Shown here: piece after piece, positions 10,396 through 27,890 of the stretch | Position numbering within the stretch: the first letter of the stretch is position 1 | How the letters are laid out: the number at the start of each line of letters is the position of its first letter | IMG/VR virus record: IMGVR_UViG_3300012940_000086 | Span: 1-28,879 of that record | DNA: 28,879 nt | Source: a virus | Lineage: Duplodnaviria > Caudoviricetes | Strand: one strand, 5' to 3' | Translations under genes and position numbers: made by a program | The notes under the pieces: generated by a model | The model's database searches: none | Seen by the model: only the letters and a program-made list of their open reading frames with translations | Told to the model about the DNA's origin: nothing

Positions 10396-10407
10396 AACAT
10401 CTCCTTT

Positions 10408-10971
10408 CTAGCCGGTGGTTCCTAGTTGAGCTCTACGCCGTTGATTAAGTGCGCGGCGAGCCGCAAGAGAACTCTTAGTTGGTCGCGGCGTCTTTTGCGG
10501 CTGGTTCTTCAAATTAATCACTCGAACCAGAGTGATAAGTTTATTAAGGTGTTTGTACTGCCATTCCATTGGGATGTTCAAAGAAATCATCCAATAATAG
10601 ATGATCTCGGCAGTGATGAACTCCCCCGTATTACGATTTTTAGCAGTCTCATTGATGACCGTTGCAGTCATCTTTCGTCCGATATAGTTATCGATCTCTC
10701 GAAAATTATCTGCGGTGAGATGATCATATACTCGAGGGGAAGAAACTGGAGCAATCGTCATACAACGAATGTATTCGATTGTTTCTTCACGAGTCTTCTC
10801 TCCCTTACCCAGGAAAGGTTTCTCGTAGATTTCCTCCCATTTTGACATGGAGGCCAGGGAATGCTCAAGTAGCAGTTCTTCTCCAGCAAAAGGTTCTGAG
10901 TTGAGGAATCGTTGATTCTTTTCGTCCCAGAGTTCGACTGAGGGAACTGCAGGAACTGTAAGTACGAGCAT
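10408..10971 (-). CDS. Tail assembly chaperone (probable)
   Basis: 187 aa immediately downstream of the main tail tube gene; helical, with a basic C-terminus. Confidence 0.6.
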   Translation of the reverse strand: MLVLTVPAVPSVELWDEKNQRFLNSEPFAGEELLLEHSLASMSKWEEIYEKPFLGKGEKTREETIEYIRCMTIAPVSSPRVYDHLTADNFREIDNYIGRKMTATVINETAKNRNTGEFITAEIIYYWMISLNIPMEWQYKHLNKLITLVRVINLKNQPQKTPRPTKSSLAARRALNQRRRAQLGTTG

Positions 10972-10990
10972 TCCCCGGCCTCCTTATCGT

Positions 10991-12533: not shown

Positions 12534-14555
12534 TTAGAAGACGAAGGTCCAGTACGTGTCCGCGGTGTGCGGGAACGAGTAGTGTGCCGCAGGACGCGAC
12601 TCGACCTCGGTAGTCTCCGCGATGGTCACCGTCGAACCCGGAGCCTGATCCACACCGTTGATGGAGTAGATAACGCCCGTCTGGCTCGGGATGGTGATCA
12701 CATGAGTCGAGGGGTTGTAGCTCGGCTGCGTCGGAGTCACAACAGTACCCGCAGCGCGCTTGATGACAATGGCCGACTTAGCCTTCGTCAGAGCACCCGA
12801 GATACGGGTCTCCAGCAGGTACTTCTGCTGGTTGTAGTCGATGTCGAAGTCGTCGAAGAACGAGATCTCGCCACCCTTGTCCGCGCCAACACGGTAATCC
12901 GCGAGGTTCACGATGATCGCGATGATGTCAGGCTCGTCCTCCATGACCTCAACCGGAACGATACGGCTGACACCGAGAGCGTCAGCGAGCTCCGTCTTGG
13001 TGGCGAAGAATCGACGACCCAGAGTGTCCTTGTCCAGGAGGAGGTCAGTCAGGACGGCCTGAGTCGTGTACATGGCCGGGTTACCCGAGCCCTTGTAGAA
13101 CGACAGCGCACGAGTGATCGCCTCGTTGGTCTGAGCCGGAGTCGAGTCGGTGACAAGGTTGATCTTGTGGGCATACATGTCGTCGTCCCACGCGATCGGA
13201 CGAAGGTGGTCCTCGTCGATCTTGTCCTCGTCATCCATGTCACGGCCGTCACCGATGAGGATCGCACGAGCGATTTCCTCATCCAGCATGATACGCATCT
13301 CCGCCTTGAGCCAGGCGATGACGTCGAAGTCCGTGATGTCGACAATGTCGTCACGGTCCAGCTTCTGCTTCTTGTAGATGGTCGTCGGAGTGGTCACACG
13401 CTTCAGAAGCTTGATAACCTCCTCCTTCTTCACCGTACCCTTGACGTAACCCTTTGCGCGAGCCTCGTCCGCCGTGATGTCAGCGTGAATGGTCTTGACG
13501 CGAGCGAACGGCGAGTGCGTGGTGTTCGTAAGAACGTCCTGCACCCACTCCATCCGGCGGCTGAGAAGCTCCGGAGTGTTCTGAACGGCCTTAGCGTCGG
13601 GGAAGAGGAAATCGATGTCATCGATACCGTAGTCGCCCTCGGCGTGTGCGAGGAAGTCCTCGACCGAGTCCTTCAGAGAACCGTTACCAGTCTTCGCAGA
13701 GTTAACGATTCGCTCGAAGTCGCTGTGCGAAAGTACCTTACGCTCCCGCTCCTTCCGACCATTGGCCTCCGCCTGGTCTGCGAAGAGGTTACGCCCCATT
13801 TCAATTCCTTCCTGGAACTTAGCGGTGAGATCCTCACCAGTGTACAAGTCGCCGTGCTGCACCGTGCCGCCGGCCTCTTCGCGGGTCTGCGCAATGGCAT
13901 CACCGATCAGATACTGAAGAACAAGCTGCTGCTTGTCATTCATGGAATCTAACACATCCTTGATGGTCTCGTTCTCATCAAGCACCGCGGTGCCATCGGC
14001 ATGAACGAGCTCATCAGGCTGCTGGAAATTACCCATCTCTTCTCCTTGGTTTGTGCCAGCAGCGCCGGCGATGTCGTCGATCTCTTCCTCTTCGAAATCG
14101 GCGTGAATGATGGTTTCGCCAGTGTAGATGATGGCCTCGTTTTCGACGTCACCATCCCCATGAGCGATAGACGTTTGGTCGATGAATGCCCCCGGATTTG
14201 CGCCCGAGAGAACCAGACTGACCTCTTTGATCATACCGCGAGTAACCTCACGGCCCTTCTGAACGAGTTTATTCGCCCAGATGGACAGAGCGTTGACGTC
14301 CCCATGCTGGACGAGAACCTTCGCCTGCTGTCCAGAGGGAGAATCGTTGAAGAAAGCCTCCGTGTAGACGCCTTCGGGCTTGTTGTAGAGCACCGCATGG
14401 CCAAGGACATTCCCCGGGCTATTGTGATCGTGCTGCCAGACGAGAGGAACCTTCATTCCTTCCTGGTGAGCGAAAGCACCAGCCTTGAGGATTCGTCCAT
14501 CAGAGCACAGCAGATCGTTCTTGGATGCCCAACCACTGAAGTCGGGAACTCCCAT
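12534..14555 (-). CDS. Capsid maturation protease-scaffold-major capsid protein fusion
   Basis: N-terminal HK97-type protease (PLVWQHDH, LSI, EVSLV..GANP.A), acidic linker, HK97-fold-sized capsid region, C-terminal Ig-like domain; high-GC3 codons. Confidence 0.92.
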   Translation of the reverse strand: MGVPDFSGWASKNDLLCSDGRILKAGAFAHQEGMKVPLVWQHDHNSPGNVLGHAVLYNKPEGVYTEAFFNDSPSGQQAKVLVQHGDVNALSIWANKLVQKGREVTRGMIKEVSLVLSGANPGAFIDQTSIAHGDGDVENEAIIYTGETIIHADFEEEEIDDIAGAAGTNQGEEMGNFQQPDELVHADGTAVLDENETIKDVLDSMNDKQQLVLQYLIGDAIAQTREEAGGTVQHGDLYTGEDLTAKFQEGIEMGRNLFADQAEANGRKERERKVLSHSDFERIVNSAKTGNGSLKDSVEDFLAHAEGDYGIDDIDFLFPDAKAVQNTPELLSRRMEWVQDVLTNTTHSPFARVKTIHADITADEARAKGYVKGTVKKEEVIKLLKRVTTPTTIYKKQKLDRDDIVDITDFDVIAWLKAEMRIMLDEEIARAILIGDGRDMDDEDKIDEDHLRPIAWDDDMYAHKINLVTDSTPAQTNEAITRALSFYKGSGNPAMYTTQAVLTDLLLDKDTLGRRFFATKTELADALGVSRIVPVEVMEDEPDIIAIIVNLADYRVGADKGGEISFFDDFDIDYNQQKYLLETRISGALTKAKSAIVIKRAAGTVVTPTQPSYNPSTHVITIPSQTGVIYSINGVDQAPGSTVTIAETTEVESRPAAHYSFPHTADTYWTFVF

Positions 14556-14567
14556 TTTGATTTCCTT

Positions 14568-15908
14568 TCACTTTCGTGGTCGAAGTGATTCTAATTCTTT
14601 AATTTTGGTTTCACCCAGAGTCGATCGAACTTCACCGATGTCAATCTCTCCCTGCTGAGGAGCGGGAGAAACGGGTGAGATTTTCTCGATTGCTGGCTGG
14701 GGCATGTTCGAGTTGATGAGCATGTCCGCCTTCGGATCCTTAGAGGGTCGAAGACCGATCTTCGCACGGATCTCGTTAGAAGTCATGATCTCATTACGAG
14801 CGAACTTGTCCGCAATTTCAGCGATGTCCGAAACTGCAACCAGTTTGAACGGATCTCTGAAGTACACAATGGACTGTCCTTGAGTCCTTGCCGTTTTGGT
14901 AAGGAAGGTTCGTCGCATTGATTCCGTAATTGATGTCAACACAGGCTCAATCGTACGCGTGTAGTAATTGAGTAAGGTCTTTTCATCAGCCTGACCGTTG
15001 AAGATCTCTTCTGTCAGTCCCAGCTGCCCATACAACATACTCGTCAGATAGGTAATCTGATTAAGTAGATTGTTCTCGGCCGGGCGATTCAGCTGAGTGA
15101 TGTGTTCCGTACCGTCCGTATAGGCAATGCCGTACTTAGAGTTTCTCAGCTGCATCTCAATGTCTTGCGCACGTTTCTCTGCCTCTTCTTTACGAGCCTG
15201 AGACTTGATAACATACGGAAGTTGAATGATAAGGTCAAGCTTTCCCGAGCTTGATGCTTCATCGACGGCGTCAAGGATGTTGAGCTTTCGGATCAGTCGT
15301 TGAAGAGTCGAATTAGGCTCATTCATCACCTGATAGAACGGATTCTCGATGATGGCAGCAATCGATTTGGGGACCGTTACTTCCTCATATCGACCTTTTC
15401 CCGGACTGTCGTTCCACAACTTTACGCGAATATGACGTGGGTACCATTGGACAATTTCACCCACACGCATACTATCGATATCATATGCTCCAGTCATGAT
15501 AGGGTTCAGAGAGGTATCGATAGGAACGACAGCAAGAACGCCCTTTTCAAACATAGTCATTGCAATATCCTGTTTGAAATGCCGGGCAGTCTGGTCGATG
15601 TTTGGATTGAGTGATAAACACTCATTTAGACCGCTCTTAATGTCTTCCTGATAATTCATGTTCTCATCGACCCGAGCATGTCGCATCTCATAGCTGGCAA
15701 CGTCAATGCCAAGACGCGTGTAAATCGAGGCCACAATGGATTTCTCATTACCGTTCGTCATTCGACGCCGGTCTGGTCGAACACCATACCCCGCTCCGTA
15801 TTGTCCGAAATCGCGAGTGTAAGACATCTCTTCATTCTGAGAAAAGACGCTCCATGCGTGGGCTAACCGATTGGCAGCGGATGCCATTCTATCAAAAATA
15901 GACGCCAC
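14568..15908 (-). CDS. Portal protein
   Basis: 446 aa between TerL and the protease/capsid gene; L...PN..QT, and IMTSNEIR..IGL.P HK97-portal C-terminal motif; AGGAGGTGA RBS with GTG start. Confidence 0.93.
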   Translation of the reverse strand: MASIFDRMASAANRLAHAWSVFSQNEEMSYTRDFGQYGAGYGVRPDRRRMTNGNEKSIVASIYTRLGIDVASYEMRHARVDENMNYQEDIKSGLNECLSLNPNIDQTARHFKQDIAMTMFEKGVLAVVPIDTSLNPIMTGAYDIDSMRVGEIVQWYPRHIRVKLWNDSPGKGRYEEVTVPKSIAAIIENPFYQVMNEPNSTLQRLIRKLNILDAVDEASSSGKLDLIIQLPYVIKSQARKEEAEKRAQDIEMQLRNSKYGIAYTDGTEHITQLNRPAENNLLNQITYLTSMLYGQLGLTEEIFNGQADEKTLLNYYTRTIEPVLTSITESMRRTFLTKTARTQGQSIVYFRDPFKLVAVSDIAEIADKFARNEIMTSNEIRAKIGLRPSKDPKADMLINSNMPQPAIEKISPVSPAPQQGEIDIGEVRSTLGETKIKELESLRPRK

Positions 15909-15953
15909 TATAGCTCACCTCCTTTCCTGATCGAAAATATGCGCATAGAATCT

Positions 15954-16505
15954 TTACTTTCGATTCGGATTATATCCATGAGATCGCATGTTGATACCCA
16001 CTGCAATATCTCCAGCGAGGAGATTGCCTACAACTGCCGCTCCGGTACTCAACGCGATTCGTCCCTGAGGAGAATCAAGAAGACTAAGTGCGGAAACAGT
16101 TGCGTACTGCGCAGATTGACCGACGTACTTGTTCATGAAATTAATCACGGGACGAGAGTGAGCAGCCTTCTTTAATCCACTTACGGCGAGATTCGCTAAA
16201 GCGACTCCACCAACAACGCCTGCGACTTTACCGACTTGACGAACGTACTTGTTTCGACCCATGACTCGATCGCGTCGGGTCTTTTCATCTCCGCGAGCAA
16301 CTGAAATGGAATCACCACGATTGAGAGCTCGATTGATTCGACGCTCTCCCCGGCGACCATAGACTTGACGGTCTCGCTTACGCTGGTTAGAATTATAATC
16401 AGGATTAGGAGCGTTTCGTGACTTACGAACCCCCCATCGCATTCCAAGAACACCATAGTGAGCGAGAAAGTCGTCAGCATCTTCAAAAATATCAGACATA
16501 TTCAT
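15954..16505 (-). CDS. HYGxxGMxWG-leader basic protein (putative internal virion protein)
   Basis: DFLAHYGVLGMRWGVRK followed by an Arg-rich region and Gly/Ala/Val hydrophobic stretches. Confidence 0.8.
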   Translation of the reverse strand: MNMSDIFEDADDFLAHYGVLGMRWGVRKSRNAPNPDYNSNQRKRDRQVYGRRGERRINRALNRGDSISVARGDEKTRRDRVMGRNKYVRQVGKVAGVVGGVALANLAVSGLKKAAHSRPVINFMNKYVGQSAQYATVSALSLLDSPQGRIALSTGAAVVGNLLAGDIAVGINMRSHGYNPNRK

Positions 16506-16507
16506 CC

Positions 16508-16948
16508 TTACTTACGCAACACATAGCGTTGAGCAGTGGGTTCCCAGATGGCGTCTAAACGAGACTCGACGAACTTTTGAACCTCTTTACCCTCCGGAGT
16601 GTCCGTATAGCCAAAGACGCTGGTCAAAGTGGCATTAAAGACACCGCCCTTTTCAAGATATGACAGAAACTCTTTACCACTTACGACAAGAGGAATCGAC
16701 ATTGGTGAATCAGCAGTTTGGATGAAAACATTGTCTTTTCCTCGAGCTGCGGCTTCAACTGTCAACTCGGCATTCTTCATTCGAGCTTTCTTAAAATCAG
16801 AAGATCTCTCTTTTAGTGTCTTCTTCCGATATAATTTCTTTTGCTCACGACTGAGAGAACGATACTCGTCTTTGCGAATACCCCATTTCATCCCCAGAAC
16901 GCCATAGTGAGCCAGAAAATCTGCCCCATTATTCAAAATATCAGTCAT
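16508..16948 (-). CDS. HYGxxGMKWG-leader basic protein (putative internal virion protein)
   Basis: DFLAHYGVLGMKWGIRK followed by a Lys/Arg-rich segment. Confidence 0.8.
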   Translation of the reverse strand: MTDILNNGADFLAHYGVLGMKWGIRKDEYRSLSREQKKLYRKKTLKERSSDFKKARMKNAELTVEAAARGKDNVFIQTADSPMSIPLVVSGKEFLSYLEKGGVFNATLTSVFGYTDTPEGKEVQKFVESRLDAIWEPTAQRYVLRK

Positions 16949-16957
16949 CAGACTTCC

Positions 16958-18703
16958 TTACTCAAAACTGTCACGGTTGGCTTTCCATGCAACGTAAGCG
17001 TCCATCAAAGCAGCGACGTTGTCAATCTTGGCATCTTTTCGCATCTTCATGAGTTTGCGGTTACCGTTAGTATCTTCAATAGTAATCGCATTACCCATGG
17101 CGAAAGACATCAACTTCTGATCGAAGATCAGCATTCTCTGTTCACTCAGTTTTTTCAGCTCGCCGAGAGGAACCGATTCAGTCTTAGCGCCCTGAATTAC
17201 TTTAGTAATTCCGAAAGGACCGTTCTCCGCTTCCCAACGAGTAACAAACTCTTTAGCGTTGTAAGGGTCAAAACCGAGAGCTCGAACGTCATACTCACTG
17301 CTCAAAATATGCTGATCAAGATCTTCATAAATCTCGATCATGTCTAGAGTCGTTCCATTTCGAACAAAGAGACTTCCCTCTTTGATGAACTCCTCATACT
17401 TAGCACGCATAGCTCCAGGGAGCTTCTTCAGTGTGTATTCTGAAATATAGCTTCGAGTCTTGATTCCGAACGAACCATCTGACAGAGGGAACAAAAAGGT
17501 GAATGCAGTAAAATCATCACCCTGAGAAAGATCCGCTCCGAGCGCACATGGTAGTCTCCAGAATTCATGGGGTCGATGAGCAATCGTCTCTTCATAGGTA
17601 AAGAAGTATGTATACCCCTCCATGGGGATTCCAAACCTCTTCGCCAGAATGTCGTTAGCAGCGGCGGGGACTTTTTCGGCTCTCTCGACGTCCTGTTGGT
17701 ACGTCTCATAAGTGACCGTCAATCCAATGTTAGGTTGAGCCTTAGGCCACATCGCTGGATCATTCACTTCTTCCACGTTGTCCAGGCGATACCACCAGAT
17801 AGACACGTGAGGATTATAGTAATCGCCCTTCAGGATACTACTTAATTCCATTTTGATGGTATCACCCGAACCATTTCGGACAGTACCTTCAGAGCTGATC
17901 GCAACGATGACCCAATCATCAAGTTTGGATGCTCCCTGTTCGACAGCACCCACTACGTCCTCTCGAACATCCCCCGACAGCCATTCGTCAATGGTTGTGA
18001 TTTTAGGTCTGAGACCCTGAAGTTTATCGATACGCATCGGACGAATCTCTAAGAGAGAATTCGTCATGAAGTTCTCGATGCCCTTCTTTGTAGAAGCTAA
18101 CTTGGCGCGAAGAGCGCGAGCCCCCGTGGTGTTCTGCAAAGATCCTTGAGTAAGGAACTTAAAGAGCGGACCAATAGCTCGCGTGATCGCCGTGCGGAAC
18201 GGACCCAACACCTCTTCCGCCTGCTTCATGGTAGGAGCAGTCGTAATCTGATGTGTAGTGTCCGTATCCACGACAAGGAAGTACGCCTGTAAGAAGAATG
18301 CGTACATCGACTTGGCACCGCCTCGAGCGACGATCAGGTACTGCTTGTTGACGAGACGCTTCTTGATCATCTTACGGACATAGTGTCCGCCGTGATTGTC
18401 CTTTGACGGAACATATACGTCGCGCTCGACGAAGTAGAACCAAGCAAGCAGAGATTCAGCCCACAACTTGAATGATTCAAGCATGTGGACTTTGCTACCA
18501 TCGGTAAGTGTCAGCTCACCCTCGCAGTAGCGAATGAATCCATCAATCGCCTGATCGTCGTAGTAGAAATTCGGGTTCGCGATGAGATCGTCAATGCGGT
18601 TCATCTCCAGAGAGATCTGCGCGTTAACGGGAATATCTCCGCGCATGACCGCTTCACGAAACGCTGCATAATACTTGGGTGTGGCTGTATTAGACAGCGC
18701 CAT
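16958..18703 (-). CDS. terL: Terminase large subunit
   Basis: Walker A-like VARGGAKS, Walker B TTIDE, nuclease motifs LGADLSQGDD, GFDPYN and KIDNVAALMDA. Confidence 0.96.
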   Translation of the reverse strand: MALSNTATPKYYAAFREAVMRGDIPVNAQISLEMNRIDDLIANPNFYYDDQAIDGFIRYCEGELTLTDGSKVHMLESFKLWAESLLAWFYFVERDVYVPSKDNHGGHYVRKMIKKRLVNKQYLIVARGGAKSMYAFFLQAYFLVVDTDTTHQITTAPTMKQAEEVLGPFRTAITRAIGPLFKFLTQGSLQNTTGARALRAKLASTKKGIENFMTNSLLEIRPMRIDKLQGLRPKITTIDEWLSGDVREDVVGAVEQGASKLDDWVIVAISSEGTVRNGSGDTIKMELSSILKGDYYNPHVSIWWYRLDNVEEVNDPAMWPKAQPNIGLTVTYETYQQDVERAEKVPAAANDILAKRFGIPMEGYTYFFTYEETIAHRPHEFWRLPCALGADLSQGDDFTAFTFLFPLSDGSFGIKTRSYISEYTLKKLPGAMRAKYEEFIKEGSLFVRNGTTLDMIEIYEDLDQHILSSEYDVRALGFDPYNAKEFVTRWEAENGPFGITKVIQGAKTESVPLGELKKLSEQRMLIFDQKLMSFAMGNAITIEDTNGNRKLMKMRKDAKIDNVAALMDAYVAWKANRDSFE

Positions 18704-18729
18704 CGGAACCCTCCTCCTTTCCTAAAGCA

Positions 18730-19086
18730 TTATCGATTAAAAAGCTTCTTAAGATATTCTGCTCCGGCTTTTCCCGCCTGACTATTAGCAATATTGTAAA
18801 TAGCGACAGCGGTTCCCGCGACAGCGAGTGCGCCGGTAATATAGTTGTACCCCGCCTGGATCTTATTCGGATATTGCTTCTTGTAGTTCTTCTCCAGCTC
18901 GCGGCGATAATTCAGTTCCTTCAGTTCTTTGTTACTGAGGTTCTGAATTCCACTTTTCTTAACCCGCTGCTGAAGACGACGCTTACGAGCATAGTCCGAA
19001 GAATATGAACCAGATCGATCCTTACGAACTCCCCACTTCATCCCTAATACACCGTAGTGAGCAAGGAAGTTCTCGCTATCAAGCAT
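18730..19086 (-). CDS. HYGxxGMKWG-leader basic protein (putative internal virion protein)
   Basis: NFLAHYGVLGMKWGVRK, LSNKEL...R.ELEK.Y helix, hydrophobic ITGALAVAGTAVAIY segment. Confidence 0.8.
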   Translation of the reverse strand: MLDSENFLAHYGVLGMKWGVRKDRSGSYSSDYARKRRLQQRVKKSGIQNLSNKELKELNYRRELEKNYKKQYPNKIQAGYNYITGALAVAGTAVAIYNIANSQAGKAGAEYLKKLFNR

Positions 19087-19089
19087 TAA

Positions 19090-19470
19090 TCATCCCTCCT
19101 CTGGGGTACTAGAATATACAGCAGGAGGAGCATAGAGGCTGAGACGCCATTCTGCTTCCTTAATCTGCTTGTCGATCGCATCGATCGCGAAAGAGGTGCT
19201 CGGAGGGTCGAACGCAAGCCGAACCTTCTGGACAATATAGGTCTTGAGTGAGTTCAGGTATTTCTTGTCCTGAATGACCTCACTCCACGTAGCCTCTTTA
19301 TCCGCGATCTCAAACCCCCCAGGAGACCCGATGTCGGCGACCTGAAGGAGAGTGGAGAAGGCGGAGTTGATGTGCATGATGATATCGATGTCAAACACCG
19401 TGTAGTCGTCCTCAATACCCAGAACTTTCTTGGTACTCGTGAGGATACTATCTGAAGGCCCTTCAGCCAT
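19090..19470 (-). CDS. Head-to-tail adaptor (gp6-like), probable
   Basis: 126 aa helical protein with SIL..TKKVLGI...FD.DI.MHINSA N-terminus typical of connector proteins. Confidence 0.7.
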   Translation of the reverse strand: MAEGPSDSILTSTKKVLGIEDDYTVFDIDIIMHINSAFSTLLQVADIGSPGGFEIADKEATWSEVIQDKKYLNSLKTYIVQKVRLAFDPPSTSFAIDAIDKQIKEAEWRLSLYAPPAVYSSTPEEG

Positions 19471-19493
19471 TACTCCGCCTTCTCCTTAATCAT

Positions 19494-19574
19494 TTACTGA
19501 CAGGACTCGCACTCGAGCTCGTCCATGGGGTCGACCGGTACTTCGTACTGACCGACATACTCTCGATCGTTCAT
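19494..19574 (-). CDS. 26-aa acidic peptide ending in CxxC (MNDREYVGQYEVPVDPMDELECESCQ)
   Basis: Translated by hand; ATG overlaps the endolysin stop (TGATG); fills the intergenic gap; host-like codons. Confidence 0.7.
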   Translation of the reverse strand: MNDREYVGQYEVPVDPMDELECESCQ

Positions 19575-20476
19575 CACGGAAGTACCAGAACCTGACCCGG
19601 CTTGATCACATTCGGGTTGCCACCAATGACGGCTTTGTTAGCAGCGTAAAGCTGCTGCCATCCGCCGGGAACGCCGAACTGCTGAGCAATCTTAGAGAGA
19701 GAATCCCCAGGACGAACCGTGTACTTACGTGCAGGGGTAGGAGCACTCTCGGCCAGGATTGCATTGACTCGAGCTTGAACAGCACCGTAATCATACCCAG
19801 CCGCAGACAGACGACGCTGACGATCTGCGCCATTACCCCAGTTTCCGGCAATCACCTCGCGAGCGATCTGATCCAGCGTCTTGCTCGGGGCAGGGGTTGC
19901 TCCAGAGAGAATCGCGTTCACGCGAGCCTGAACTGCAGCATAGTCGTAACCCGCCGCTGTCAGACGCTGCTGACGCTCAGAACCGTTACCCCATTTACCC
20001 GCGATCACCTCGCGCGCGACCGCATCGACATCCTTACCAGGAGTAGGCGCCGGGTTCGGATTGTACGGCTGGATGCCGACAATCGCCGGGCGGTTACCAT
20101 TAGCGCGTGATCCACCCAGGAACTTTCGATTGTACTGACTGATTCGGGTGATCTTCACACCACGACCAAGATTCTCAACCATTCCGGACTTGTTCGCCGT
20201 GGCATTCACCATCAGATCGTCTCCGATTTTGACGGCGTCATGGCCAGGAGTGGAATACTCGAAGTAGAGGATTCCGCCAATCGGAACCTCCTCCGGAGTC
20301 TCGAACTCGAGGTTGGAAGCATCACAGGCCTCCTGAGCAGATCCGTATCCGCCAGGAGCCGGACGCCCCAGATAAGCCGAGATCATCAGACCGACGAAGT
20401 ACTGACACCATCCGGACAGATCCTGCTTTGTAGAGTTACGAAGCGCGATTAACGCCAGGTCTCGACCGTTAGGCAT
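19574..20476 (-). CDS. Endolysin: CHAP/NlpC-like Cys-His peptidase, 2x CW_7 (Cpl-7) repeats, LysM
   Basis: GWCQYFV...GHDAV catalytic motifs; two AREVIAG.WGNG..R..RL.AAGYDY.AVQARVN repeats; YTVRPGDSLSKIA...N.IKPGQVL LysM. Confidence 0.92.
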   Translation of the reverse strand: MPNGRDLALIALRNSTKQDLSGWCQYFVGLMISAYLGRPAPGGYGSAQEACDASNLEFETPEEVPIGGILYFEYSTPGHDAVKIGDDLMVNATANKSGMVENLGRGVKITRISQYNRKFLGGSRANGNRPAIVGIQPYNPNPAPTPGKDVDAVAREVIAGKWGNGSERQQRLTAAGYDYAAVQARVNAILSGATPAPSKTLDQIAREVIAGNWGNGADRQRRLSAAGYDYGAVQARVNAILAESAPTPARKYTVRPGDSLSKIAQQFGVPGGWQQLYAANKAVIGGNPNVIKPGQVLVLP

Positions 20477-20658
20477 TAGTCATCCTTTCCGTTATCGATG
20501 CTCTTAATACCCTCAGCATCACCCTCGGACTCCGGGACAAAGTCCTCAGAAACCTCAGAAGGAGCAACGTCGGGACTTGCATTCACTGGAGCCGCTTCCT
20601 GTTCTGCGTTGGGAGCGACCTCCACCGGAGTGGCAGGGGTAGGCTCGGATTCGGACAT
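20476..20658 (-). CDS. Small acidic low-complexity hypothetical protein
   Basis: 60 aa, AAAGGAG RBS, stop overlaps the endolysin ATG. Confidence 0.75.
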   Translation of the reverse strand: MSESEPTPATPVEVAPNAEQEAAPVNASPDVAPSEVSEDFVPESEGDAEGIKSIDNGKDD

Positions 20659-20672
20659 AGTTTTCTCCTTTT

Positions 20673-21107
20673 CTATCGACCCCAGAGTTTCGTGTCTCCG
20701 GGACGTCTCTCCACAGGAACTACTTGCCGAAGCTTGCTCCTGTCGCCAAAGTGGATCGCATTATGTGTGTCGAGAGTAACTGAGATCAAATACTCAGGAT
20801 TGAGTATGTCCTCACTACCTTCATCGATCTGCTTGGCGGTCATCGGGTTCATGTGGTGGATAATAATCTTATCGTAGATCTCACGCCCCGGAACTGCTAA
20901 GTCACATCCGAGATCCCTCGCAATGACGTCATTGCGAATGTTCTTCCATTCTCGCGAACGATAGAATGCCTGATTAATCCATCTGTCAAAACCAAAAGTA
21001 GATGTTCCAACACTACTTCGAAGCTGCAAATAATCAAATCTGTCTTCGAAGCTATCGAACTGAAGCATCTCATGGTATGACCTTTTATGGTCAGTCAAGA
21101 TACTCAT
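20673..21107 (-). CDS. HNH endonuclease (terminase-associated type)
   Basis: FYRSREWK..R..VIARD..C, IIHHMNP and L....HNAIH motifs; sits next to the TerS candidate. Start uncertain. Confidence 0.88.
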   Translation of the reverse strand: MSILTDHKRSYHEMLQFDSFEDRFDYLQLRSSVGTSTFGFDRWINQAFYRSREWKNIRNDVIARDLGCDLAVPGREIYDKIIIHHMNPMTAKQIDEGSEDILNPEYLISVTLDTHNAIHFGDRSKLRQVVPVERRPGDTKLWGR

Positions 21108-21435
21108 CCGGAATATCATCGCTCGGTCGGTACCCCGTAAAGGCCTCGATGGCCGCACGAGCTATCTCTTCGCTGTTAACACTGGATTGGATTGCCTCAA
21201 CTCGAGCACGAAGAAGTTCATTCTCCGCCCGAAGTTTATCTCGCTCGATCTCTTCACGAACCGTAGCGAGTTTAAGGTAATGTGTGATCACCTGTGCGGA
21301 CGCCGTTCCTTCCCGGAGTTGAATCTCAGCAAGATCCACTGCTAGGGATTTCAGCTGGTCTTCACGTTCCTGGATAGTTGTCGCCGGGGGACGTTTGCGT
21401 CCGACGTAAACTTCCTTAGGAATTTTTGCCGCCAT
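21091..21435 (-). CDS. Putative terminase small subunit
   Basis: 114 aa helical/coiled-coil protein with GGAGGTGA RBS, upstream of HNH and TerL. Function inferred from position only. Confidence 0.5.
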   Translation of the reverse strand: MAAKIPKEVYVGRKRPPATTIQEREDQLKSLAVDLAEIQLREGTASAQVITHYLKLATVREEIERDKLRAENELLRARVEAIQSSVNSEEIARAAIEAFTGYRPSDDIPDEYLD

Positions 21436-21465
21436 AGTTGATCACCTCCAAAATTGAAAATATGT

Positions 21466-21603
21466 GCAGAGTCCTCCTAAAGAACCACCAGACTTATAGC
21501 GTGGACCACCCCGTCCGAAGGTGAACACGCCTCTTGAAAGGAGAAAGGGTTGATGACGCCCATTTTTTTGTTTTAGCCTGGTGGTTCATCAGAAGGACTC
21601 TGC
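21466..21603 (-). ncRNA. Structured intergenic RNA (29-bp closing stem)
   Basis: Arms 21466-21494 and 21575-21603 pair at 28/29 positions on the minus strand, three of them G-U; inner hairpin at 21499-21530. Confidence 0.65.
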
Positions 21604-21609
21604 TCCACT

Positions 21610-22026
21610 CTAAGCGATAGAGCCGGCGCCATCCACGACGACTCGAATTTCGCTCGGTGCATTCTTTCCAAAAATGTCAGCGAGTGTAATCTGCTCTCCA
21701 GCGCGGAGCTTTCCTGCCAGAATGTGTTGCCTATCCTCGAGCTCATTAATGCGCTTGTCTTTCTCATCGAGAAGAGACTTTAAGCGATCGATGGTCTCTT
21801 GTTTGGTGCTGTTAGACTTCTCCAGCTCGATAATGGTTGCACGAAGTTCTTTTCTCTCAGCTCGAGCATCTTCAAGAAGCTGAGAAGCGAATTCATTACC
21901 TAGACGAGCAAGTTCATTCTGTGACTCAGGTGAGCGAGAACGCTTCGACACCAGAGTGAATATGCCGCTGATCAGACCACTGCTGAGAACAGCAGCGATA
22001 ATCGTCTGAAGAAGGTCAGGGTTCAT
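21610..22026 (-). CDS. Membrane-anchored coiled-coil protein (lysis accessory candidate)
   Basis: One N-terminal TM segment (IIAAVLSSGLISGIFTLV) followed by a coiled coil; ATGA overlap with the upstream gene. Confidence 0.75.
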   Translation of the reverse strand: MNPDLLQTIIAAVLSSGLISGIFTLVSKRSRSPESQNELARLGNEFASQLLEDARAERKELRATIIELEKSNSTKQETIDRLKSLLDEKDKRINELEDRQHILAGKLRAGEQITLADIFGKNAPSEIRVVVDGAGSIA

Positions 22027-22454
22027 ACATTAACCTTCTTTCGATGCGAACTGATAATAACAATTCGAACGAATATGAATGCGGCCACAGCATAGGAAAG
22101 TACAGCCAAATCCGATCCTCGATGGTCGACTGAAGTCACTACAAGGACGACTCGAACAATGAAGTAGGACACTGGTCCTGAAAGAGCTAGATAGAGTCCT
22201 GCGAGCTCAAGAGTTGTTCCTCGTTGAGAAGTTTTGATGAATTTTGATGTAGCCATCAACAGTCCAACAGCCGATACAATAAGGCCGAAAAATACAACGC
22301 CCGAGACAAGAAGAGTAAGAAAGAACTGCAATGCTTGACCGACTGGGCTGGAGGAAGCATTGACGAAGAATAAGACTGACCAAATGATCATCGCAAGCTT
22401 CGCATTGAGCCAAGCCCAATGGTCTGGTCGAAGTTTCTTAAGAGTAGATATCAT
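22023..22454 (-). CDS. Four-TM membrane protein (holin candidate)
   Basis: Four hydrophobic segments and a basic C-terminus (SHRKKVNV). Start moved to ATG 22454. Confidence 0.7.
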   Translation of the reverse strand: MISTLKKLRPDHWAWLNAKLAMIIWSVLFFVNASSSPVGQALQFFLTLLVSGVVFFGLIVSAVGLLMATSKFIKTSQRGTTLELAGLYLALSGPVSYFIVRVVLVVTSVDHRGSDLAVLSYAVAAFIFVRIVIISSHRKKVNV

Positions 22455-22465
22455 GTTTCCCCCGT

Positions 22466-22526
22466 AAAATAAAAGAGAGTGCAACAACGACGGAGATGGT
22501 CGTGAGAGACACCTCCGTCGTTGTTG
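22466..22526 (-). terminator. Intrinsic terminator
   Basis: Perfect 14-bp arms CAACAACGACGGAG (22482-22495 and 22513-22526), followed on the minus strand by CACTCTCTTTTATTTT. Confidence 0.75.
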
Positions 22527-22535
22527 GGGTCACTA

Positions 22536-22781
22536 CTAACTACTCGGTGCGAGAATTTTACGATCGCGAAGTGTCTGTAACAGAGTGTTGTAGTCTGCCA
22601 CAAGATCTTCAACCGTAGTTGCCTCGGAATCCGGAACATCCGGAAGAGTAGCGGAATCTGCGACGATCGGGAAAACCTGCTCGCCTCCTAAGAAGAAGGC
22701 AGTCTCGGTTAAACCCTGACTTGCGTCTAGGGAGACCGGAGTATCGATAACGTTGAACTGTTGAATGCGGTTAGCGCCCAT
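22536..22781 (-). CDS. Head fibre-like small virion protein
   Basis: C-terminal DSEATTVEDLVADYNTLLQTLRDRKILA resembles the phage head-fibre trimerisation motif. Confidence 0.65.
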   Translation of the reverse strand: MGANRIQQFNVIDTPVSLDASQGLTETAFFLGGEQVFPIVADSATLPDVPDSEATTVEDLVADYNTLLQTLRDRKILAPSS

Positions 22782-22810
22782 TATAGTTTCTTTCTCTTAA
22801 AAATTTAAAA

Positions 22811-23209
22811 CTAGGGGACAGTCACCCACTGGAGGGAACCGTCAACAGCCTGAAGCTGAAGAGTTCCCGAAGTGGACCAACCAGGAAGGGAGTTGAGAAT
22901 CAGGGGAATGAGTTCCTCAAGACCTCGCCAGTCTAGATTCTCGCCGTTGTAAGTAATAACTCCCCACATTGGGACCGAGGTTCCTGTAAACTGACGAAGG
23001 ACCCATTCAAGCGGACCGCGATTCCATTCACCTTCACTAGAATAAATAATTTCGTAATCTAGTGAAGGTTCTGGAAGAACGTCTCCACCTCCGCCGATCT
23101 CGACAGGGTTTCCATCCTGATCGAAGAAAGGCATCTGAGTAACACCCTGACTTGGCTCGATAGCTGTCTGAGTGGTGACAATCCGAACCTACTCAGTTCG
23201 GTTGCTCAT
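22811..23209 (-). pseudogene. Gene with in-frame amber codon at position 7 (nonsense allele, readthrough or sequencing error); N-terminus paralogous to 22536..22781
   Basis: AAAGGA RBS, ATG 23209, MSNRTE*VRIVTTQTAIEPSQGVTQMPFF..., continuous with the 107-aa ORF 22811..23134. Confidence 0.7.
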
Positions 23210-23239
23210 GTTAAGTATCCTTTAGAAATAGTTTCGAAA

Positions 23240-23500
23240 TTAGACAGGTTCCGAAGCAGGTGGGTTCGTTGTGAAAATACCCATACCTCGATCGAGGATT
23301 CGAACATCACTCGTTCCGTCAGAGACGACAAAAACAGAACTACGTGTTTCCCCCACGGTAAGAGCCTGACCCACTTGCAGTTCGATTCCGGTCTCGACTG
23401 TGACGCTGGAACCACCCACATAGAGTTTGTCGGGACCTAAGTTTTGAATAAGGTATGAGGACGAGCCGACCTCAACCGGGGTGTCCGTGATCTCAGCCAC
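23240..23500 (-). CDS. Small beta-rich hypothetical protein (first gene after the putative cos)
   Basis: 86 aa, GGAGGGAG RBS, GTG start, IQNLG...LYVGG..VT...GI.L..GQ.L pattern. Confidence 0.8.
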   Translation of the reverse strand: MAEITDTPVEVGSSSYLIQNLGPDKLYVGGSSVTVETGIELQVGQALTVGETRSSVFVVSDGTSDVRILDRGMGIFTTNPPASEPV

Positions 23501-23608
23501 GAAAGTGCTCCCTCCAAAAATAGTTGTGACCTACTCCGAACGAGTTAGGACACTCCTCAAAGGAGTTTCAACCCACTCAGGCAGACTTCGATGGTAGAAA
23601 CCTCCCAG

Positions 23609-23683
23609 AATTTGTCCCCCCGGGGGAATTTTCAGGAGGCGGGCGATGCGGGAGGGGGGTCATTTTTGCGAGACCCCCCTCCC
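23609..23683. other. Putative cos/genome-end junction
   Basis: CCCCCGGGGG palindrome (23617-23626), minus-strand CGCCCGCCT (23637-23645) and perfect 12-bp inverted repeat (23650-23661/23672-23683), in a non-coding gap between the RNAP module and the packaging/structural module. Confidence 0.65.
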
Positions 23684-23710
23684 CATCTGCTTTTAAGAAT
23701 TCCTAGATCT

Positions 23711-23953
23711 TCACGAAGGTTGTGGAACCTTACGATACAGACCTAAAACATTCTCTTTCACAATTTCATCAATTGCTGATTCTCTTGCATAATTCTGAAC
23801 AGCTTCTGACATGTCATCAGAGGACACTACTATTCTAGCCAGGAGGCTATTTGTAAAGTAGCCGTGGGACTCATCAAAGCTCAACCATTCATCGTACTCA
23901 GTGAAAGGATTGAACGGATTGTCCACGGTTGTAAGCATGTGTACAGGATCCAT
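23711..23953 (-). CDS. Small acidic hypothetical protein downstream of the RNAP gene
   Basis: 80 aa, GAAAGGAGAAAG RBS, MLTTVDNPFNPFTEYDEW motif. Confidence 0.85.
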   Translation of the reverse strand: MDPVHMLTTVDNPFNPFTEYDEWLSFDESHGYFTNSLLARIVVSSDDMSEAVQNYARESAIDEIVKENVLGLYRKVPQPS

Positions 23954-23974
23954 GTGTCTTTCTCCTTTCTCTGA

Positions 23975-26689
23975 TTACTTGAGAGCCTGATTCAGAGTAC
24001 TAACACTCACACCAAGAGCAGATGCGACCTCGGCTTGTGTATAGCCGGCGGCCAACATACTCTTTGCACGAGCGATGTATGCTGTCGTCATAGTGGGAGC
24101 GTTACGTGGAGTAGCAAGTTCTTTAATGCGGTCGAGGTCTGTGTTCTGCAGGATCTTTTGCAGAATGTTAGAACTAACTGCACCAGATTGAATTGCTTCC
24201 CATTCCCTATCACTAATCGTAATGGGGGTCTTTTGCGCACCTACACGGAGTCGAGCTTCCTCAAGAGCTTGATACTTGATTCTCTTAAGGTCATCTTTAT
24301 CGAGGCTTGGGTTAGCATCGGCCTTTGATTTAGCTATGGCGTTACCTACAACCTGCGCTACTCTCTCGAGGGGGGCGTTTTTGAGGGCCCGGTTAAGCTG
24401 GGCCTTCAAATGATCCACCTCGGGCTTGTATGTCGCTTTAGCAGAAGGATTAACCTTCATGGGTGGGGTATTAACCATCTCTTTACGGGCCCGGTTAGCA
24501 AGAGCTTTCATCTTGTTGGAGTAGTCCGCATAGATGAACTCGATCGGTGTACCTGGATCAGAGACAAGACTATAAGCATCCTTAGCTTCTGCAAGCTTTG
24601 TAGTGCGGATAGTCTTTAGCTTTTGTACTTCTGTGACTTCGCCTGTCTTCTTGTTCACCTTGTATGTGGGATAAGTCTCACCTGTCTCCACATACATCTT
24701 CTCGCCTGTGTTCTTATCAATGAACCCACCTTGTGCCGCAGGTCGCGGTTTACGGGCAGGCACGCGAAGATCAGAAGAGGCTCGAGAGATGAGCGTAGAA
24801 GCGCCGCTACGAACACTTCCCTGATAGTCCTTCTTCAGCTGAGCTATGTTGTTATCCAAATAAGACTGTTTATAGTTCAGCTCATGCTTCTCAGCGTCGA
24901 TCACCACCATTGAGTGCCGAACTGCTCGAGCTAGCTCGGCTTGTGTGGCTCCACCGATACTCATGTCAGTGATCAGGTTAGAGATGTTACCCATCTGATG
25001 CTGTTTCTCTGCAGCACTCATCACCTGCATTCCCTCATATTTGGGGTATGCCGTCTTAGGATCGAAATCCTTGAGTGCGGCAAGAGCAGGAGCGGTCTTC
25101 ACTCGACCCTGATTATTGGGAATGACAAGAACTGTATCTCCATCGAAATCCGCTCCTGAGAGACGGGCAGCAACATTAGAGTTGATACCTACAGCGTCAA
25201 TTGCATTCGGGATCAAACGACGAGCATCCTTGTTTTTGTTGTTCACCGTCAACTCGGGGATCTCAAAGATACCACCGTGGGGGTGCCTGACAAGAACGAC
25301 AGTCTCTCCGTTGTTGTAATTAGGAGCATAGATCTCGTTATCCTTCAGCGAATTAATCGGAAGGATGACATGGGTATTAGTACGAGGAAGTCCAGCTGCT
25401 TTCAAATGAACAGCAGAAGAGTCCGCCGAATCAGCGAAAGACTGAAGTAGCTTCTTCTTCACCTCAGGGTTGGTCAATCGAGAAATGCTGGCTAACTCGT
25501 TCTCCATCTGATCGTAACGCATGGCCAATTGCTCCTTAGCGAGAGCTGTCGGCTGCTTGGAAAGGAACTGAGAGGAGAATTTATTCGACCACTCACTCCA
25601 TTTTCCTTCTTCGTTAACGATGTTCAGAGCACCACTTTGACGCTGGATAGAAGATCCGAAAGGGTTATTAGGATCTGAAGTTTCCTGCTTCTTCATGGCC
25701 GCAAGCTTGATGTTTGGAGCCTTGCCATCGGCAACAGCTTTTTCCATCTCGGCTCTGGTTTTGTTCGTGTTGAAGCGAATATCTACACCATCCGGAAGGT
25801 CGTCGGCATACATCGCCATTCCCTTAAGATAGTGGGTTCCATCTACTGCAATACGAACCTGAGCATATCGAGCATTACCCAAAGAAATATCTTCGACGCC
25901 TCTACGCAACTCGATCACACCATCCGCATCAGATCCACCTTCATCGCCATATCTAACCATGACTCGCTTGGATTTGATATTGCTGGGGGGTTTGATCTTA
26001 GTGAAAGTTTCACCACCGTCTTCCGAGAAAGACTGAACAGTACGAATCTTATCACTATTCTGAGCGAATTCTTTGTATGTGACACCAGGCTCCACGAGGA
26101 CTTTATAGGTAGTCATCTCACCGGTTCCAAGCTGAGGCTTCTTGATAGGATATACGTTGTATCCCTCTTCACGAAGCATTTGCAAGGCAACCTTGAGCTG
26201 GGTGTCACTTACGCCAAGATAATGTTCTGTGCCTAGACCTACGTCAAGATACTTCTTATCTGCCACTTCCTGCTTGAGAACGTTGGCAGTCGAAGTCAAC
26301 CGATCGACTTTAGCTTGGGTTGAGGGCTTCAGTAAGTCACGAACAGAAGACTCGGGCTTCCCCATAATCTTACCAATCGCAACGTTAGAGAGTCCCTTTT
26401 CCTTCAGCTTGATTGCCTCAGAGATCTCAGCTTTCTGGACTTCATTCTTAGCGCTACTGTTGAGCGCACGGAAATATGTCGTAGACCAAGGTTTACCGTC
26501 GTCGGTATACAGACCCATACCGCGAGCAATCTCAGTATCACTGAGTCCCTGGGCACGCATCATAGCAACGTAACCAAGAAATCCCTTTGCGCTTTGATAC
26601 GGGTCTTTTCCAGACCCCCAGGGATAACGACCTGAGTGGCGTGGAGTACCAAAATGAGCTAGTTCATCCTCTGCAAGCTCAAAGCTCAC
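23975..26689 (-). CDS. Single-chain two-barrel RNA polymerase (YonO/QDE-1-like) with three HTH motifs
   Basis: Ordered motifs DADGVI, AQVRI....YLKG, VLVRHP (R468), LSGADFDGD (D514/516/518; nt 25136-25150), MGNISN, HSMVVIDAEK; HTHs near both termini. Confidence 0.85.
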   Translation of the reverse strand: MSFELAEDELAHFGTPRHSGRYPWGSGKDPYQSAKGFLGYVAMMRAQGLSDTEIARGMGLYTDDGKPWSTTYFRALNSSAKNEVQKAEISEAIKLKEKGLSNVAIGKIMGKPESSVRDLLKPSTQAKVDRLTSTANVLKQEVADKKYLDVGLGTEHYLGVSDTQLKVALQMLREEGYNVYPIKKPQLGTGEMTTYKVLVEPGVTYKEFAQNSDKIRTVQSFSEDGGETFTKIKPPSNIKSKRVMVRYGDEGGSDADGVIELRRGVEDISLGNARYAQVRIAVDGTHYLKGMAMYADDLPDGVDIRFNTNKTRAEMEKAVADGKAPNIKLAAMKKQETSDPNNPFGSSIQRQSGALNIVNEEGKWSEWSNKFSSQFLSKQPTALAKEQLAMRYDQMENELASISRLTNPEVKKKLLQSFADSADSSAVHLKAAGLPRTNTHVILPINSLKDNEIYAPNYNNGETVVLVRHPHGGIFEIPELTVNNKNKDARRLIPNAIDAVGINSNVAARLSGADFDGDTVLVIPNNQGRVKTAPALAALKDFDPKTAYPKYEGMQVMSAAEKQHQMGNISNLITDMSIGGATQAELARAVRHSMVVIDAEKHELNYKQSYLDNNIAQLKKDYQGSVRSGASTLISRASSDLRVPARKPRPAAQGGFIDKNTGEKMYVETGETYPTYKVNKKTGEVTEVQKLKTIRTTKLAEAKDAYSLVSDPGTPIEFIYADYSNKMKALANRARKEMVNTPPMKVNPSAKATYKPEVDHLKAQLNRALKNAPLERVAQVVGNAIAKSKADANPSLDKDDLKRIKYQALEEARLRVGAQKTPITISDREWEAIQSGAVSSNILQKILQNTDLDRIKELATPRNAPTMTTAYIARAKSMLAAGYTQAEVASALGVSVSTLNQALK

Positions 26690-27822: not shown

Positions 27823-27890
27823 AAAAATGAAAAATCGGGGTACAAAGTGATAGATTTTGGTCAATCTCACCTTGCACCCCGATTCTCATT
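27823..27890 (-). terminator. Long hairpin/terminator
   Basis: About 24-bp arms whose mismatches become G-U pairs on the minus strand, followed by a U-rich run. Confidence 0.6.

Follow-up and report, generated by a model that had tools for sequence, protein, structure and literature searches.

A predicted histidine-directed prohead protease and a putative cargo tag on basic proteins and an RNA polymerase-like protein in a siphophage lineage

The siphophage genome region analysed here probably (at roughly 60%, judged from sequence comparison and by analogy) encodes an HK97-type prohead protease with specificity for His, accompanied by a cargo tag; the two would work like gp21 and the CTS of phage T4. 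According to the proposed mechanism, the protease, which is fused to scaffold and capsid, would cut at hydrophobic-x-His sites in the linker and at the capsid boundary. A tag of the form acidic-L-x-H-[YFH]-G...WG would load three DUF7211 proteins and a predicted RNA polymerase (RNAP) into the prohead, where the tagged proteins would be trimmed after the His, to be delivered later into the host with the DNA. There the RNAP may start early phage transcription, and effector cargo may counter host defence. The window, meaning the whole stretch of DNA under study, has 28,879 nt (positions 1 to 28,879 of IMGVR_UViG_3300012940_000086) and comes from a Lactococcus 1706-like / actinophage AU-AM-AW-BI-CC-DJ-EL siphophage.

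A preliminary description had listed six LAH sites, in the capsid, the portal, the 183-aa, 146-aa and 118-aa proteins and the RNAP, as well as five similar sites in the protease-scaffold linker. All eleven were found at their positions, the six LAH sites exclusively on the minus strand, and the 34 window proteins (9008 aa) contain no further LAH. The expected count is 0.75, and none of 5000 within-protein shuffles reached six. The bare hydrophobic-x-His motif, in turn, is not rare: it has 36 matches in the 34 proteins and occurs N-terminally in six of them, where shuffling gives 2.6 on average and attains six in 206 of 5000 trials. This frequency is what favours chance, by which structural histidines would merely resemble the site of a paralogous N-terminal family to which they are unrelated, an explanation that we consider very improbable in view of the enrichment, the shuffle results and the cargo-like score of the RNAP tag given below. 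In the motif comparison across related phages that had been proposed earlier, the His site held and LAH did not: relatives have [LIV]-x-H with a varied middle residue, which rules out LAH as a family motif. These relatives are non-independent samples, and the motif windows were picked after looking. Two layers can be distinguished in the motif: the minimal site occurs everywhere, the longer cargo tag on the DUF7211 proteins and the RNAP only.

The protease-scaffold-capsid fusion

12534..14555, minus strand: 673-aa protease-scaffold-capsid fusion (phrog_3270), with a beta-rich C-terminal domain at its end
14178..14555, minus strand: S78/HK97-type prohead protease domain, aa 1-126 (Pfam PF04586)
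14430-14432, 14283-14285 and 14223-14225, minus strand: catalytic residues His42, Ser91 and Glu111
14499..14507, minus strand: lineage-specific Cys17-x-Asp19 loop
13644..14192, minus strand: acidic scaffold linker, aa 122-304, mostly of low pLDDT
14160-14162, 14103-14105, 14001-14003, 13854-13856 and 13725-13727, minus strand: linker sites H132, H151, H185, H234 and H277
13644..13646, minus strand: His304 at the scaffold/capsid boundary (capsid LAH site), predicted final maturation cut

The fused protease postulated earlier is present as an intact S78 enzyme, as seen from a profile match (23.7 bits to PF04586, cut-off 21; 31.6 to TIGR01543, below the cut-off of 59) and from His42, Ser91 and Glu111, which are invariant across 37 aligned sequences and align with the residues of seven outgroup HK97-like proteases. 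Residues 1-123 were modelled at pLDDT 73-93. In fold searches with the fusion model, the capsid domain filled both match lists and the protease domain was not reached. A search for shorter proteases returned, among the best 120 of 1464 matches, close in-group proteins or fragments only (59-71% identical). A candidate specificity loop, according to the alignment, is Cys17-x-Asp19, which is found in 73 of 73 matched relatives and in 25 of 25 proteins of a prophage sample; all seven outgroup proteases carry D-x-x-G-D at this place.

Two histidines within the protease domain were considered as further sites. For His84 (LVQH-GD), a role as self-destruct site was weakened by Asn in 8 of 76 proteins (three unmatched), and this substitution makes a helix-capping role probable. 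Conservation is lacking at His53, where one outgroup protease also has His.

In the linker (188 aa in this count), all six histidines match [LIVFM]-x-H-[AGSD], which none of 20000 shuffles achieved, although the motif was selected after the finding had been seen. The density of hydrophobic-x-His-small sites per 1000 aa is 28.0 in the linker versus 1.19 in the capsid domain for 39 nr capsids, 26.3 versus 1.4 for 34 capsids and 23.7 versus 0.39 for 25 prophage capsids; TerL has 0.41, and an outgroup control of seven HK97-type protease tails plus the N-terminal 130 aa of the capsids contained one site in 1427 aa. The linkers of relatives hold 4-11 His each. A change of the P1 residue in some relative would prove co-evolution; none was found among the 39, 34 and 25 capsids.

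At the capsid boundary, 75 of 76 proteins show a hydrophobic P3 for the His that most closely precedes the LFP motif, and this site is kept despite a His-to-LFP distance that varies from 8 to 31 residues (one row is mis-anchored at 4). The same holds for 25 of 25 further prophage capsids, 24 of them with the His within 35 aa. By its model the capsid domain is of the HK97 fold (Z 12.0 to 1ohg, rmsd 4.5, 218 aligned residues), with matches spanning aa 303-603; the 280-residue 1ohg chain ends at 383. Model residue 325 aligns with HK97 residue 124, so that residue 305 maps, by ungapped extrapolation, to 104, with which the mature HK97 chain begins. By ungapped extrapolation as well, residue 2 of Che8 maps to 303 and residue 2 of Mic1 to 302. 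Sequence searches for solved relatives of the capsid fusion, the RNAP and the tag gave nothing except a weak match of the capsid fusion to 9sz9 (E 0.0086), and a search for virion N-terminal data of the lineage gave none.

The His sites thus appear, from sequence, strongly enriched and placed like maturation cuts. Very probably, the protease would free itself at H132 as the head matures, the linker would be cut into pieces of 19-49 residues, and the capsid would start at 305; the predicted mature capsid (aa 305-673) accounts for 41.1 of 74.1 kDa. The sites might instead be a docking motif, which would fit a groove on the protease, the scaffold, the portal or the capsid, or share a metal ion, while cleavage by the protease takes place at other positions or at residues other than His. 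Such a role would suit the cargo tag, whose length and conservation go far beyond what a protease requires of its site, the position of several sites at helix ends in the models, and the Cys17-x-Asp19 loop, which could bind metal. It leaves unexplained, however, why the boundary site is kept across indels and matches the HK97 mature N-terminus, and why there are 4-11 His per linker and acidic spacers between two sites, and we regard it as unlikely.

The cargo tag and its carriers

15954..16505, minus strand: 183-aa DUF7211 protein, body pI 11.5; His16 at 16458-16460
16508..16948, minus strand: 146-aa DUF7211 protein, body pI 9.8; His14 at 16907-16909
18730..19086, minus strand: 118-aa DUF7211 protein, body pI 10.2; His10 at 19057-19059
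23975..26689, minus strand: 904-aa single-chain two-barrel RNAP-like protein with HTHs (phrog_4291; 1706 ORF75 family)
25136-25150, minus strand: RNAP DFDGD; D514, F515, D516 and D518 invariant in 39 sequences
26597..26689, minus strand: RNAP aa 1-31, conserved and of low pLDDT, with acidic leader, His12 and xG..SGRYPWGSG
26654-26656, minus strand: RNAP His12 (LAH; GTG start)

The three basic proteins match Pfam DUF7211 (PF23847) with 50.8, 41.6 and 51.3 bits (cut-off 27). Pfam assigns no function to this family, and our search found no paper naming it. The tag comprises about 22 residues, an acidic leader followed by L-x-H-[YFH]-G...WG. Conservation before the His is confined to L at P3 (89%) and to acidity; the residues kept after it are G, V/I, G, M, K, W, G, V and R, of which G, G and WG were demanded by the search pattern. 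Since the conserved half follows the His, it would be kept, unlike the removed tag of T4. The earlier picture of a leader removed as in T4 is modified here, most of the conserved tag residues lying behind the putative cut. The leader has 10-16 aa in the window and a median of 12 in 74 nr relatives. The residue at P1' differs by class, being small in linkers and aromatic or His in cargo.

The tag heads 25 to 82 unrelated body clusters, among them GNAT, ART, Ntox50 and deamidase domains, and the bodies are basic in 73 of 74 cases. Pfam searches with 31 proteins of the window and with 121 cargo bodies gave no MuF domain. With a matrix trained on cargo, the median scores are 14 and 11.8 for cargo, -7 for linker, -8 for boundary and -13 to -16 for background sites, and the RNAP tag scores like cargo. 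The low linker and boundary scores, like the class difference at P1', count against the proposed reading. The tag also recurs within polyproteins, whose acidic spacers are bordered by His sites. Among 28 internal segments of multi-tag proteins, 20 contain a second site at a distance of 4-60 aa ahead of the following tag (2.7 in shuffles; 0 of 20000), a test for which window and P1' set were picked after a first one with a 15-90-aa window (15 of 28 versus a null of 8.3; 3 of 2000); 19 of these 20 spacers are acidic.

It is fairly likely that the tag is cut after the His, by which the acidic leader would be lost and basic, putatively DNA-binding bodies unmasked, while polyprotein cargo would be split likewise. 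That a host protease cuts the motifs, or that the register is shifted so as to place His at P2 or P1', has a small probability. H-H-G variants leave the register ambiguous in 41% of 179 tags, and His-at-P1 specificity is, to our knowledge, rare. Against both variants, a hydrophobic P3 and small residues after the His fit the P3-x-P1 pattern that the accessible text of PMC5694885 gives for related prohead proteases, with sites such as A-X-E and S/A/G-X-E. The motif is, moreover, shared by phages whose hosts are Actinobacteria, Lactococcus and gut Clostridia.

A variant of the tag is found in 41 of 43 RNAP relatives and, counted by eye, in all 29 distinct N-terminally complete prophage RNAPs; DUF7211 is absent among the five Pfam matches listed for the RNAP. 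According to its model, the RNAP has the DxDGD loop and the double-psi-barrel fold of two-barrel polymerases (YonO/QDE-1-like). Its nearest structures are QDE-1 (Z 13.8, rmsd 4.8, 370 aligned; Foldseek E 4e-9) and P74-26 gp62 / P23-45 gp64 (Z 12.3 and E 1e-7 to gp62), rather than gp96 (Z 9.8). P23-45 gp96, which is delivered as a tape-measure fusion rather than through a head tag, is a precedent for a siphovirus with a virion RNAP. The 1706-family RNAP has already been predicted to be a two-barrel RNAP (10.1101/842583, PMC2919709); the accessible parts of these two sources neither call it a virion enzyme nor mention the leader.

We consider it probable that the virion contains the tagged proteins, the RNAP among them. 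In Lactococcus phage 1706, orf7 (two tags) and orf75 (the RNAP homologue) are labelled 'structural protein' in GenBank, second-hand labels that could include co-purifying DNA binders. The out-of-module structural proteins orf62 and orf71 of 1706 carry no tag, and only 4 of the 16 ORFs with an N-terminal hydrophobic-x-His (of 76) are labelled structural. Proteomics terms were not found in PMC5883640.

With virion evidence consisting of GenBank labels, one may also suppose that the scaffold and capsid sites are cut but the tag is no packaging signal, the proteins acting in the infected cell, for example as a YonO-like late-gene RNAP that is activated or cleared by the protease. Some tagged genes indeed map to the replication region or stand behind other domains in a fusion, and the RNAP fold neighbours include polymerases that are not known from virions. 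This reading seems improbable to us, since orf7 and orf75 bear structural labels, tagged genes cluster round terminase and portal, bodies are nearly always basic, and the effector domains are of kinds predicted to be head-packaged (PMC5512222, PMC9503650, as far as their accessible text goes).

Comparison with known head-processing systems

T4 gp21 has Glu at P1, whereas His is predicted at P1 here and the enzyme, an S78 protease of the HK97 type, forms one chain with scaffold and capsid. In T4, no RNAP is packed and the portal stays uncut; here both proteins bear candidate sites. In the accessible text of the T4 reports, the CTS is an N-terminal propeptide of 10-20 residues on unrelated head cargo (IPI-III, Alt), which is cut off by the protease that also digests the scaffold, and the counter-defence cargo is diverse (PMC7411985, PMC3012670). 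A short N-terminal leader on unrelated proteins is likewise seen in our phages, but the tag also occurs internally in polyproteins and is most conserved after the putative cut.

In the giant phages SPN3US (gp245), phiKZ and 201phi2-1, a three-residue motif is cut in capsid, portal and ejection proteins, additional sites lie within propeptides, and one virion RNAP subunit of 201phi2-1 is processed, according to the text available to us (PMC5694885). These are myoviruses of more than 200 kb with A/S/G-x-Glu sites, long propeptides and multisubunit RNAPs, in contrast to the 40-110-kb cos siphoviruses with a single-chain RNAP described here.

The likeness to HK97 gp4 and capsid comprises the aligned catalytic His/Ser/Glu, the HK97 fold and a boundary at the mature N-terminus; the differences are the single protease-scaffold-capsid polypeptide and C-x-D in place of D-x-x-G-D. 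HK97 gp4 cuts after Lys, and we know of no cargo tag in HK97. Cargo of the same classes (ART, GNAT, RNase, peptidase) is found in MuF-fused toxins and polyvalent proteins, predicted in the accessible text to be head-packaged and peptidase-released (PMC5512222, PMC9503650); the carrier here would be a peptide of about 22 residues, not a MuF domain.

If the proposed reading is true, DUF7211 gains a function, and an explanation follows for hundreds of genes now called 'hypothetical' in some 244 sequenced phages. His-at-P1 specificity would be new to prohead proteases and possibly useful as a reagent, T4-style tagged protein injection and virion RNAPs would reach small HK97-type siphoviruses, and the tag would be a search handle for injected counter-defence proteins. 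A bolder version, which we regard as speculative and rather unlikely in full, would see, in a siphovirus lineage common worldwide, the first His-specific prohead protease with a portable tag of about 22 residues inverting the logic of T4. The tag would lose its acidic half, and the xG..GMKWG half would become a new N-terminus that retains the cargo or pilots it through the tail; an otherwise ordinary HK97-type head would thereby deliver, with one tag, a single-chain two-barrel RNAP as well as exchangeable counter-defence enzymes, of which some are made as polyproteins.

Portal, distribution and genome end

14568..15908, minus strand: portal, with a basic R-L-A-H17 site
15858-15860, minus strand: portal H17 (LAH)
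16958..18703, minus strand: terminase large subunit, no tag; negative control
19090..19470, minus strand: head-tail connector, no tag
23637..23645, minus strand: probable 9-nt cos overhang, matching the annotated ReqiPoco6 terminus region

The portal had been grouped with the proteins bearing an acidic leader. Its LAH site stands, the acidic leader does not: the net charge is +1 here, and the mean over the eight residues before the His is +1.8 in 40 relatives versus -1.8 for the RNAP, which rules out the portal as an acidic-leader protein. The His is absent in 2 of 42 relatives, and the portal N-terminus has no homologous control because outgroup portals align only from residue 61. The portal thus seems, by sequence, the weakest candidate substrate, and its trimming at H17 is somewhat doubtful. 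In the models, H277 of the linker is compatible with a helix-capping box as well, and a helical setting is possible for H304 and portal H17.

The tag matches 244 of 50,697 phage records, the capsid fusion also 244, with near-identical genus tallies, and a different head module beside the tag was not found in 70 plus 77 loci. The tag thus appears, from these searches, to be found only in this phage lineage and to travel with it. Phages with tag and capsid fusion include those of Arthrobacter, Gordonia, Streptomyces, Lactococcus and gut bacteria, and cultured members exist. Scans of the window DNA for promoters, terminators and repeats gave nothing clearly exceeding chance. The probable cos overhang lies just downstream of the RNAP gene and an 80-aa gene.

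His sites of the capsid fusion and its protease

The preliminary description had claimed six LAH sites and five sites in the acidic scaffold linker of the protease-scaffold-capsid fusion, and this observation is real: all were found exactly at the positions given. The His residues concerned are 132, 151, 185, 234, 277 and 304 of the capsid fusion, 17 of the portal, 12 of the RNA polymerase-like protein (RNAP) and 16, 14 and 10 of the three basic proteins. LAH occurs six times in 9008 residues versus 0.75 in shuffles (six reached in 0 of 5000), and all six linker His fit hydrophobic-x-His-small, as do 0 of 20000 shuffles. The bare minimal site, hydrophobic-x-His, is common (36 matches among 34 window proteins); that the motif is shared by coincidence is hardly credible to us. 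The leader described as acidic throughout holds with the exception of the portal, which is excluded because its leader has a net charge of +1.

We put at about 0.6 the probability that the fused protease cuts after hydrophobic-x-His and that the tagged basic proteins and RNAP are packaged, trimmed and delivered. Cleavage would clear the scaffold and mature the capsid, the prohead would take up the tagged proteins and RNAP, where they would be trimmed, and this cargo would enter the host together with the DNA. Such a system is well supported comparatively and, biochemically, a prediction.

Residues 1-126 of the fusion are an S78 protease, above the cut-off of PF04586 and below that of TIGR01543. 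Across 37 sequences His42, Ser91 and Glu111 show no variation, and they align with seven outgroup HK97-type proteases. The predicted model has a confident protease, a mostly low-confidence linker and an HK97 fold from about residue 303. Lineage proteases carry Cys-x-Asp (73 of 73 matched among 76, plus 25 of 25) in place of the D-x-x-G-D found in 7/7 outgroups, a candidate basis of altered specificity. At one locus (L217), the protease and capsid profiles match separate ORFs, the fusion being split or frameshifted.

Among 39 non-redundant capsids drawn from 67 full-length ones, linker identity is 40% versus 63-65% in the flanks, each linker has 4-11 His, and the residue two places before them (P3) is hydrophobic in 84% versus a background of 21%. 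Per 1000 residues the linker has 28.0 sites, the capsid domain 1.19 and TerL 0.41; the protease domain (18.5) and tail terminator (6.9) are high because of conserved His positions, which counts against a linker-specific enrichment. Two further samples, located via the cargo tag and not via the capsid, gave 26.3 versus 1.4 (34 capsids) and 23.7 versus 0.39 (25 prophage capsids) for linker and capsid domain, and the tails of outgroup proteases, taken together with the N-terminal regions of outgroup capsids, contain a single site in 1427 residues. Docking at these sites without cleavage seems unlikely.

With Tyr counted as hydrophobic, P3 of the last His upstream of the capsid LFP motif is hydrophobic in 75 of 76 proteins, a set containing a few near-duplicates, and in 25/25 additional capsids. 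This His lies 8-31 residues from LFP in the 76 (one row mis-anchored at 4). In a structural alignment, residue 325 of the model falls on residue 124 of HK97. The mature chain of HK97 is 280 residues long, from 104 to 383, and residue 104 extrapolates to model residue 305, directly after His304. We infer that boundary and linker sites resemble maturation cuts. Cleavage in another register, or by a host protease, appears improbable.

The putative cargo tag and the proteins behind it

The three basic proteins are members of Pfam DUF7211. In 179 non-redundant copies the tag reads acidic, L (89%), x, H, [HYF], G, [VI], x, G, [MQ], [KR], W, G, V, R, of which H, G, G and WG were demanded by the search pattern itself. 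Leaders are acidic and short (median 12), and the body that follows is net basic in 73 of 74 cases. The 229 tagged bodies form 82 clusters. A Pfam scan of 121 of the 150 representatives gave no match for most, four matches each for GNAT and glutamine deamidase, and one each for ART, Ntox50, DUF6883, M90 and HTH; in one Atlas cluster DUF7211 is joined to a 2H phosphoesterase.

Multiple tags per protein are frequent. A second site lies 4-60 residues upstream of the next tag in 20 of 28 internal segments versus 2.7 in shuffles, a window chosen post hoc (the first one tried gave 15/28 versus 8.3), and 19 of these 20 segments have an acidic spacer. Judged by sequence, these proteins are arranged like a polyprotein whose spacers are putatively excisable. 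The spacers of seven loci (L061, L064, L073, L074, L083, L084, L172) have a common beta-hairpin-like D-D-x-G-x-I pattern. Multi-tag ORFs of L045, L061 and L074 contain, N-terminal to the tags, a 2H phosphoesterase-like domain that has a pair of H-x-T motifs, a possible anti-CBASS-type cargo. A replication-region protein with an internal tag occurs at L167:9455-10408, L233:9652-10575 and L377, its tag flanked by a His-rich N-terminal and a toxin-like C-terminal domain (Ntox50 in L167). In the window, the capsid start after His304 (13599-13646, minus strand) reads YGI, like the post-His [YFH]-G-[VI] of the tag, and most relatives have H-G-I there; this may be mimicry or chance.

The RNAP model matches QDE-1, P74-26 gp62, P23-45 gp64 and gp96 in a fold search, and the aspartates of its DFDGD are invariant among relatives; earlier publications already predict a polymerase role (10.1101/842583, PMC2919709). 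Its residues 1-31 are conserved although low-confidence in the model, and 41 of 43 relatives carry the tag, the two others looking truncated or frameshifted. With a matrix trained on DUF7211 tags (P7 to P2'), RNAP leaders score 11.8, close to the 14.0 of the training set itself; the capsid boundary (-8), linker (-7) and portal (-9.6) are far lower, with background His at -13 to -16. These scores point to two layers, the minimal site and, beyond it, a longer cargo tag. Portal relatives have hydrophobic-x-His in basic context in 40 of 42 (strict pattern in 37); two lack the His.

Virion evidence, distribution and known systems

In phage 1706, orf7, with two tags and three further sites, and orf75 (RNAP) are annotated 'structural protein' (GenBank EU081845). 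Eleven 1706 ORFs are so labelled, and adding the portal, the capsid and two tail genes gives 15. LC-MS/MS of 1706 reportedly gave 15 proteins. As counter-evidence, orf62 and orf71 are labelled structural though without tag, and of the 16 ORFs that have the minimal motif near their N-terminus just 4 carry the label. That the sites are cleaved and the cargo yet not packaged we regard as rather unlikely. The name of phrog_35934, 'virion structural protein', is not independent evidence, since it derives from ReqiPoco6 gp020, annotated by similarity to orf7.

The 29-residue tag matches 244 phage records, with genus tallies (compared as tallies, not record by record) nearly equal to those of the capsid fusion. 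The lineage's protease is nearby in 48 and some lineage hallmark in 66 of 70 viral loci >3 kb, chosen by tag alone out of 154; for genome loci the numbers are 55 and 66 of 77, overlapping loci of one contig counting separately. Of the 11 genome loci without hallmark, seven have matches to proteins of 1706, Poco6 or the window; the other four are unplaced. No head module of another kind was seen beside the tag in these 70 and 77 loci.

The T4 prohead protease cuts after Glu. T4 gp21/CTS (PMC7411985, PMC3012670) and giant-phage head proteolysis (PMC5694885) work similarly to the proposed system. However, its protease family is another one, its candidate P1 is His and theirs Glu, and tag conservation lies in the part that would be retained after cleavage; it is therefore a member of neither. 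Cargo classes resemble those of MuF/polyvalent systems (PMC5512222, PMC9503650). In the literature listings searched, which covered few subscription papers, we found no description of DUF7211, the motif or the family as a virion/RNAP system.

Lineage and genome setting

The window, which takes in the entire assembly, comprises a siphophage structural arm and right end, with every gene on the minus strand, and belongs to the 1706-like actinophage-Firmicutes supergroup of bioRxiv 10.1101/842583. Among 50,697 phage records, a sequence search gave 250 matches for RNAP and 244 for the capsid fusion, with identity <60% throughout, the hosts being chiefly Arthrobacter (95), Gordonia (55), Streptomyces (54) and Lactococcus (13). 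A cos-like 9-mer at 23637-23645 matches the annotated ReqiPoco6 end. The genome junction probably falls within the window. DNA features noted here are:

23637-23710, minus strand, probable cos site region, preceded by a G-run/C-run hairpin-like motif common to the ReqiPoco6 right end
21466-21603, 22482-22526, 23030-23069 and 27833-27884, inverted repeats, not clearly above chance, intergenic or at gene ends

Inverted repeat I1 has arms of 29 nt with 80 nt between them. Three major-tail-protein-like genes (295, 256 and 259 aa) lie at 8607-11878 on the minus strand, and the two scanned match phrog_2645.
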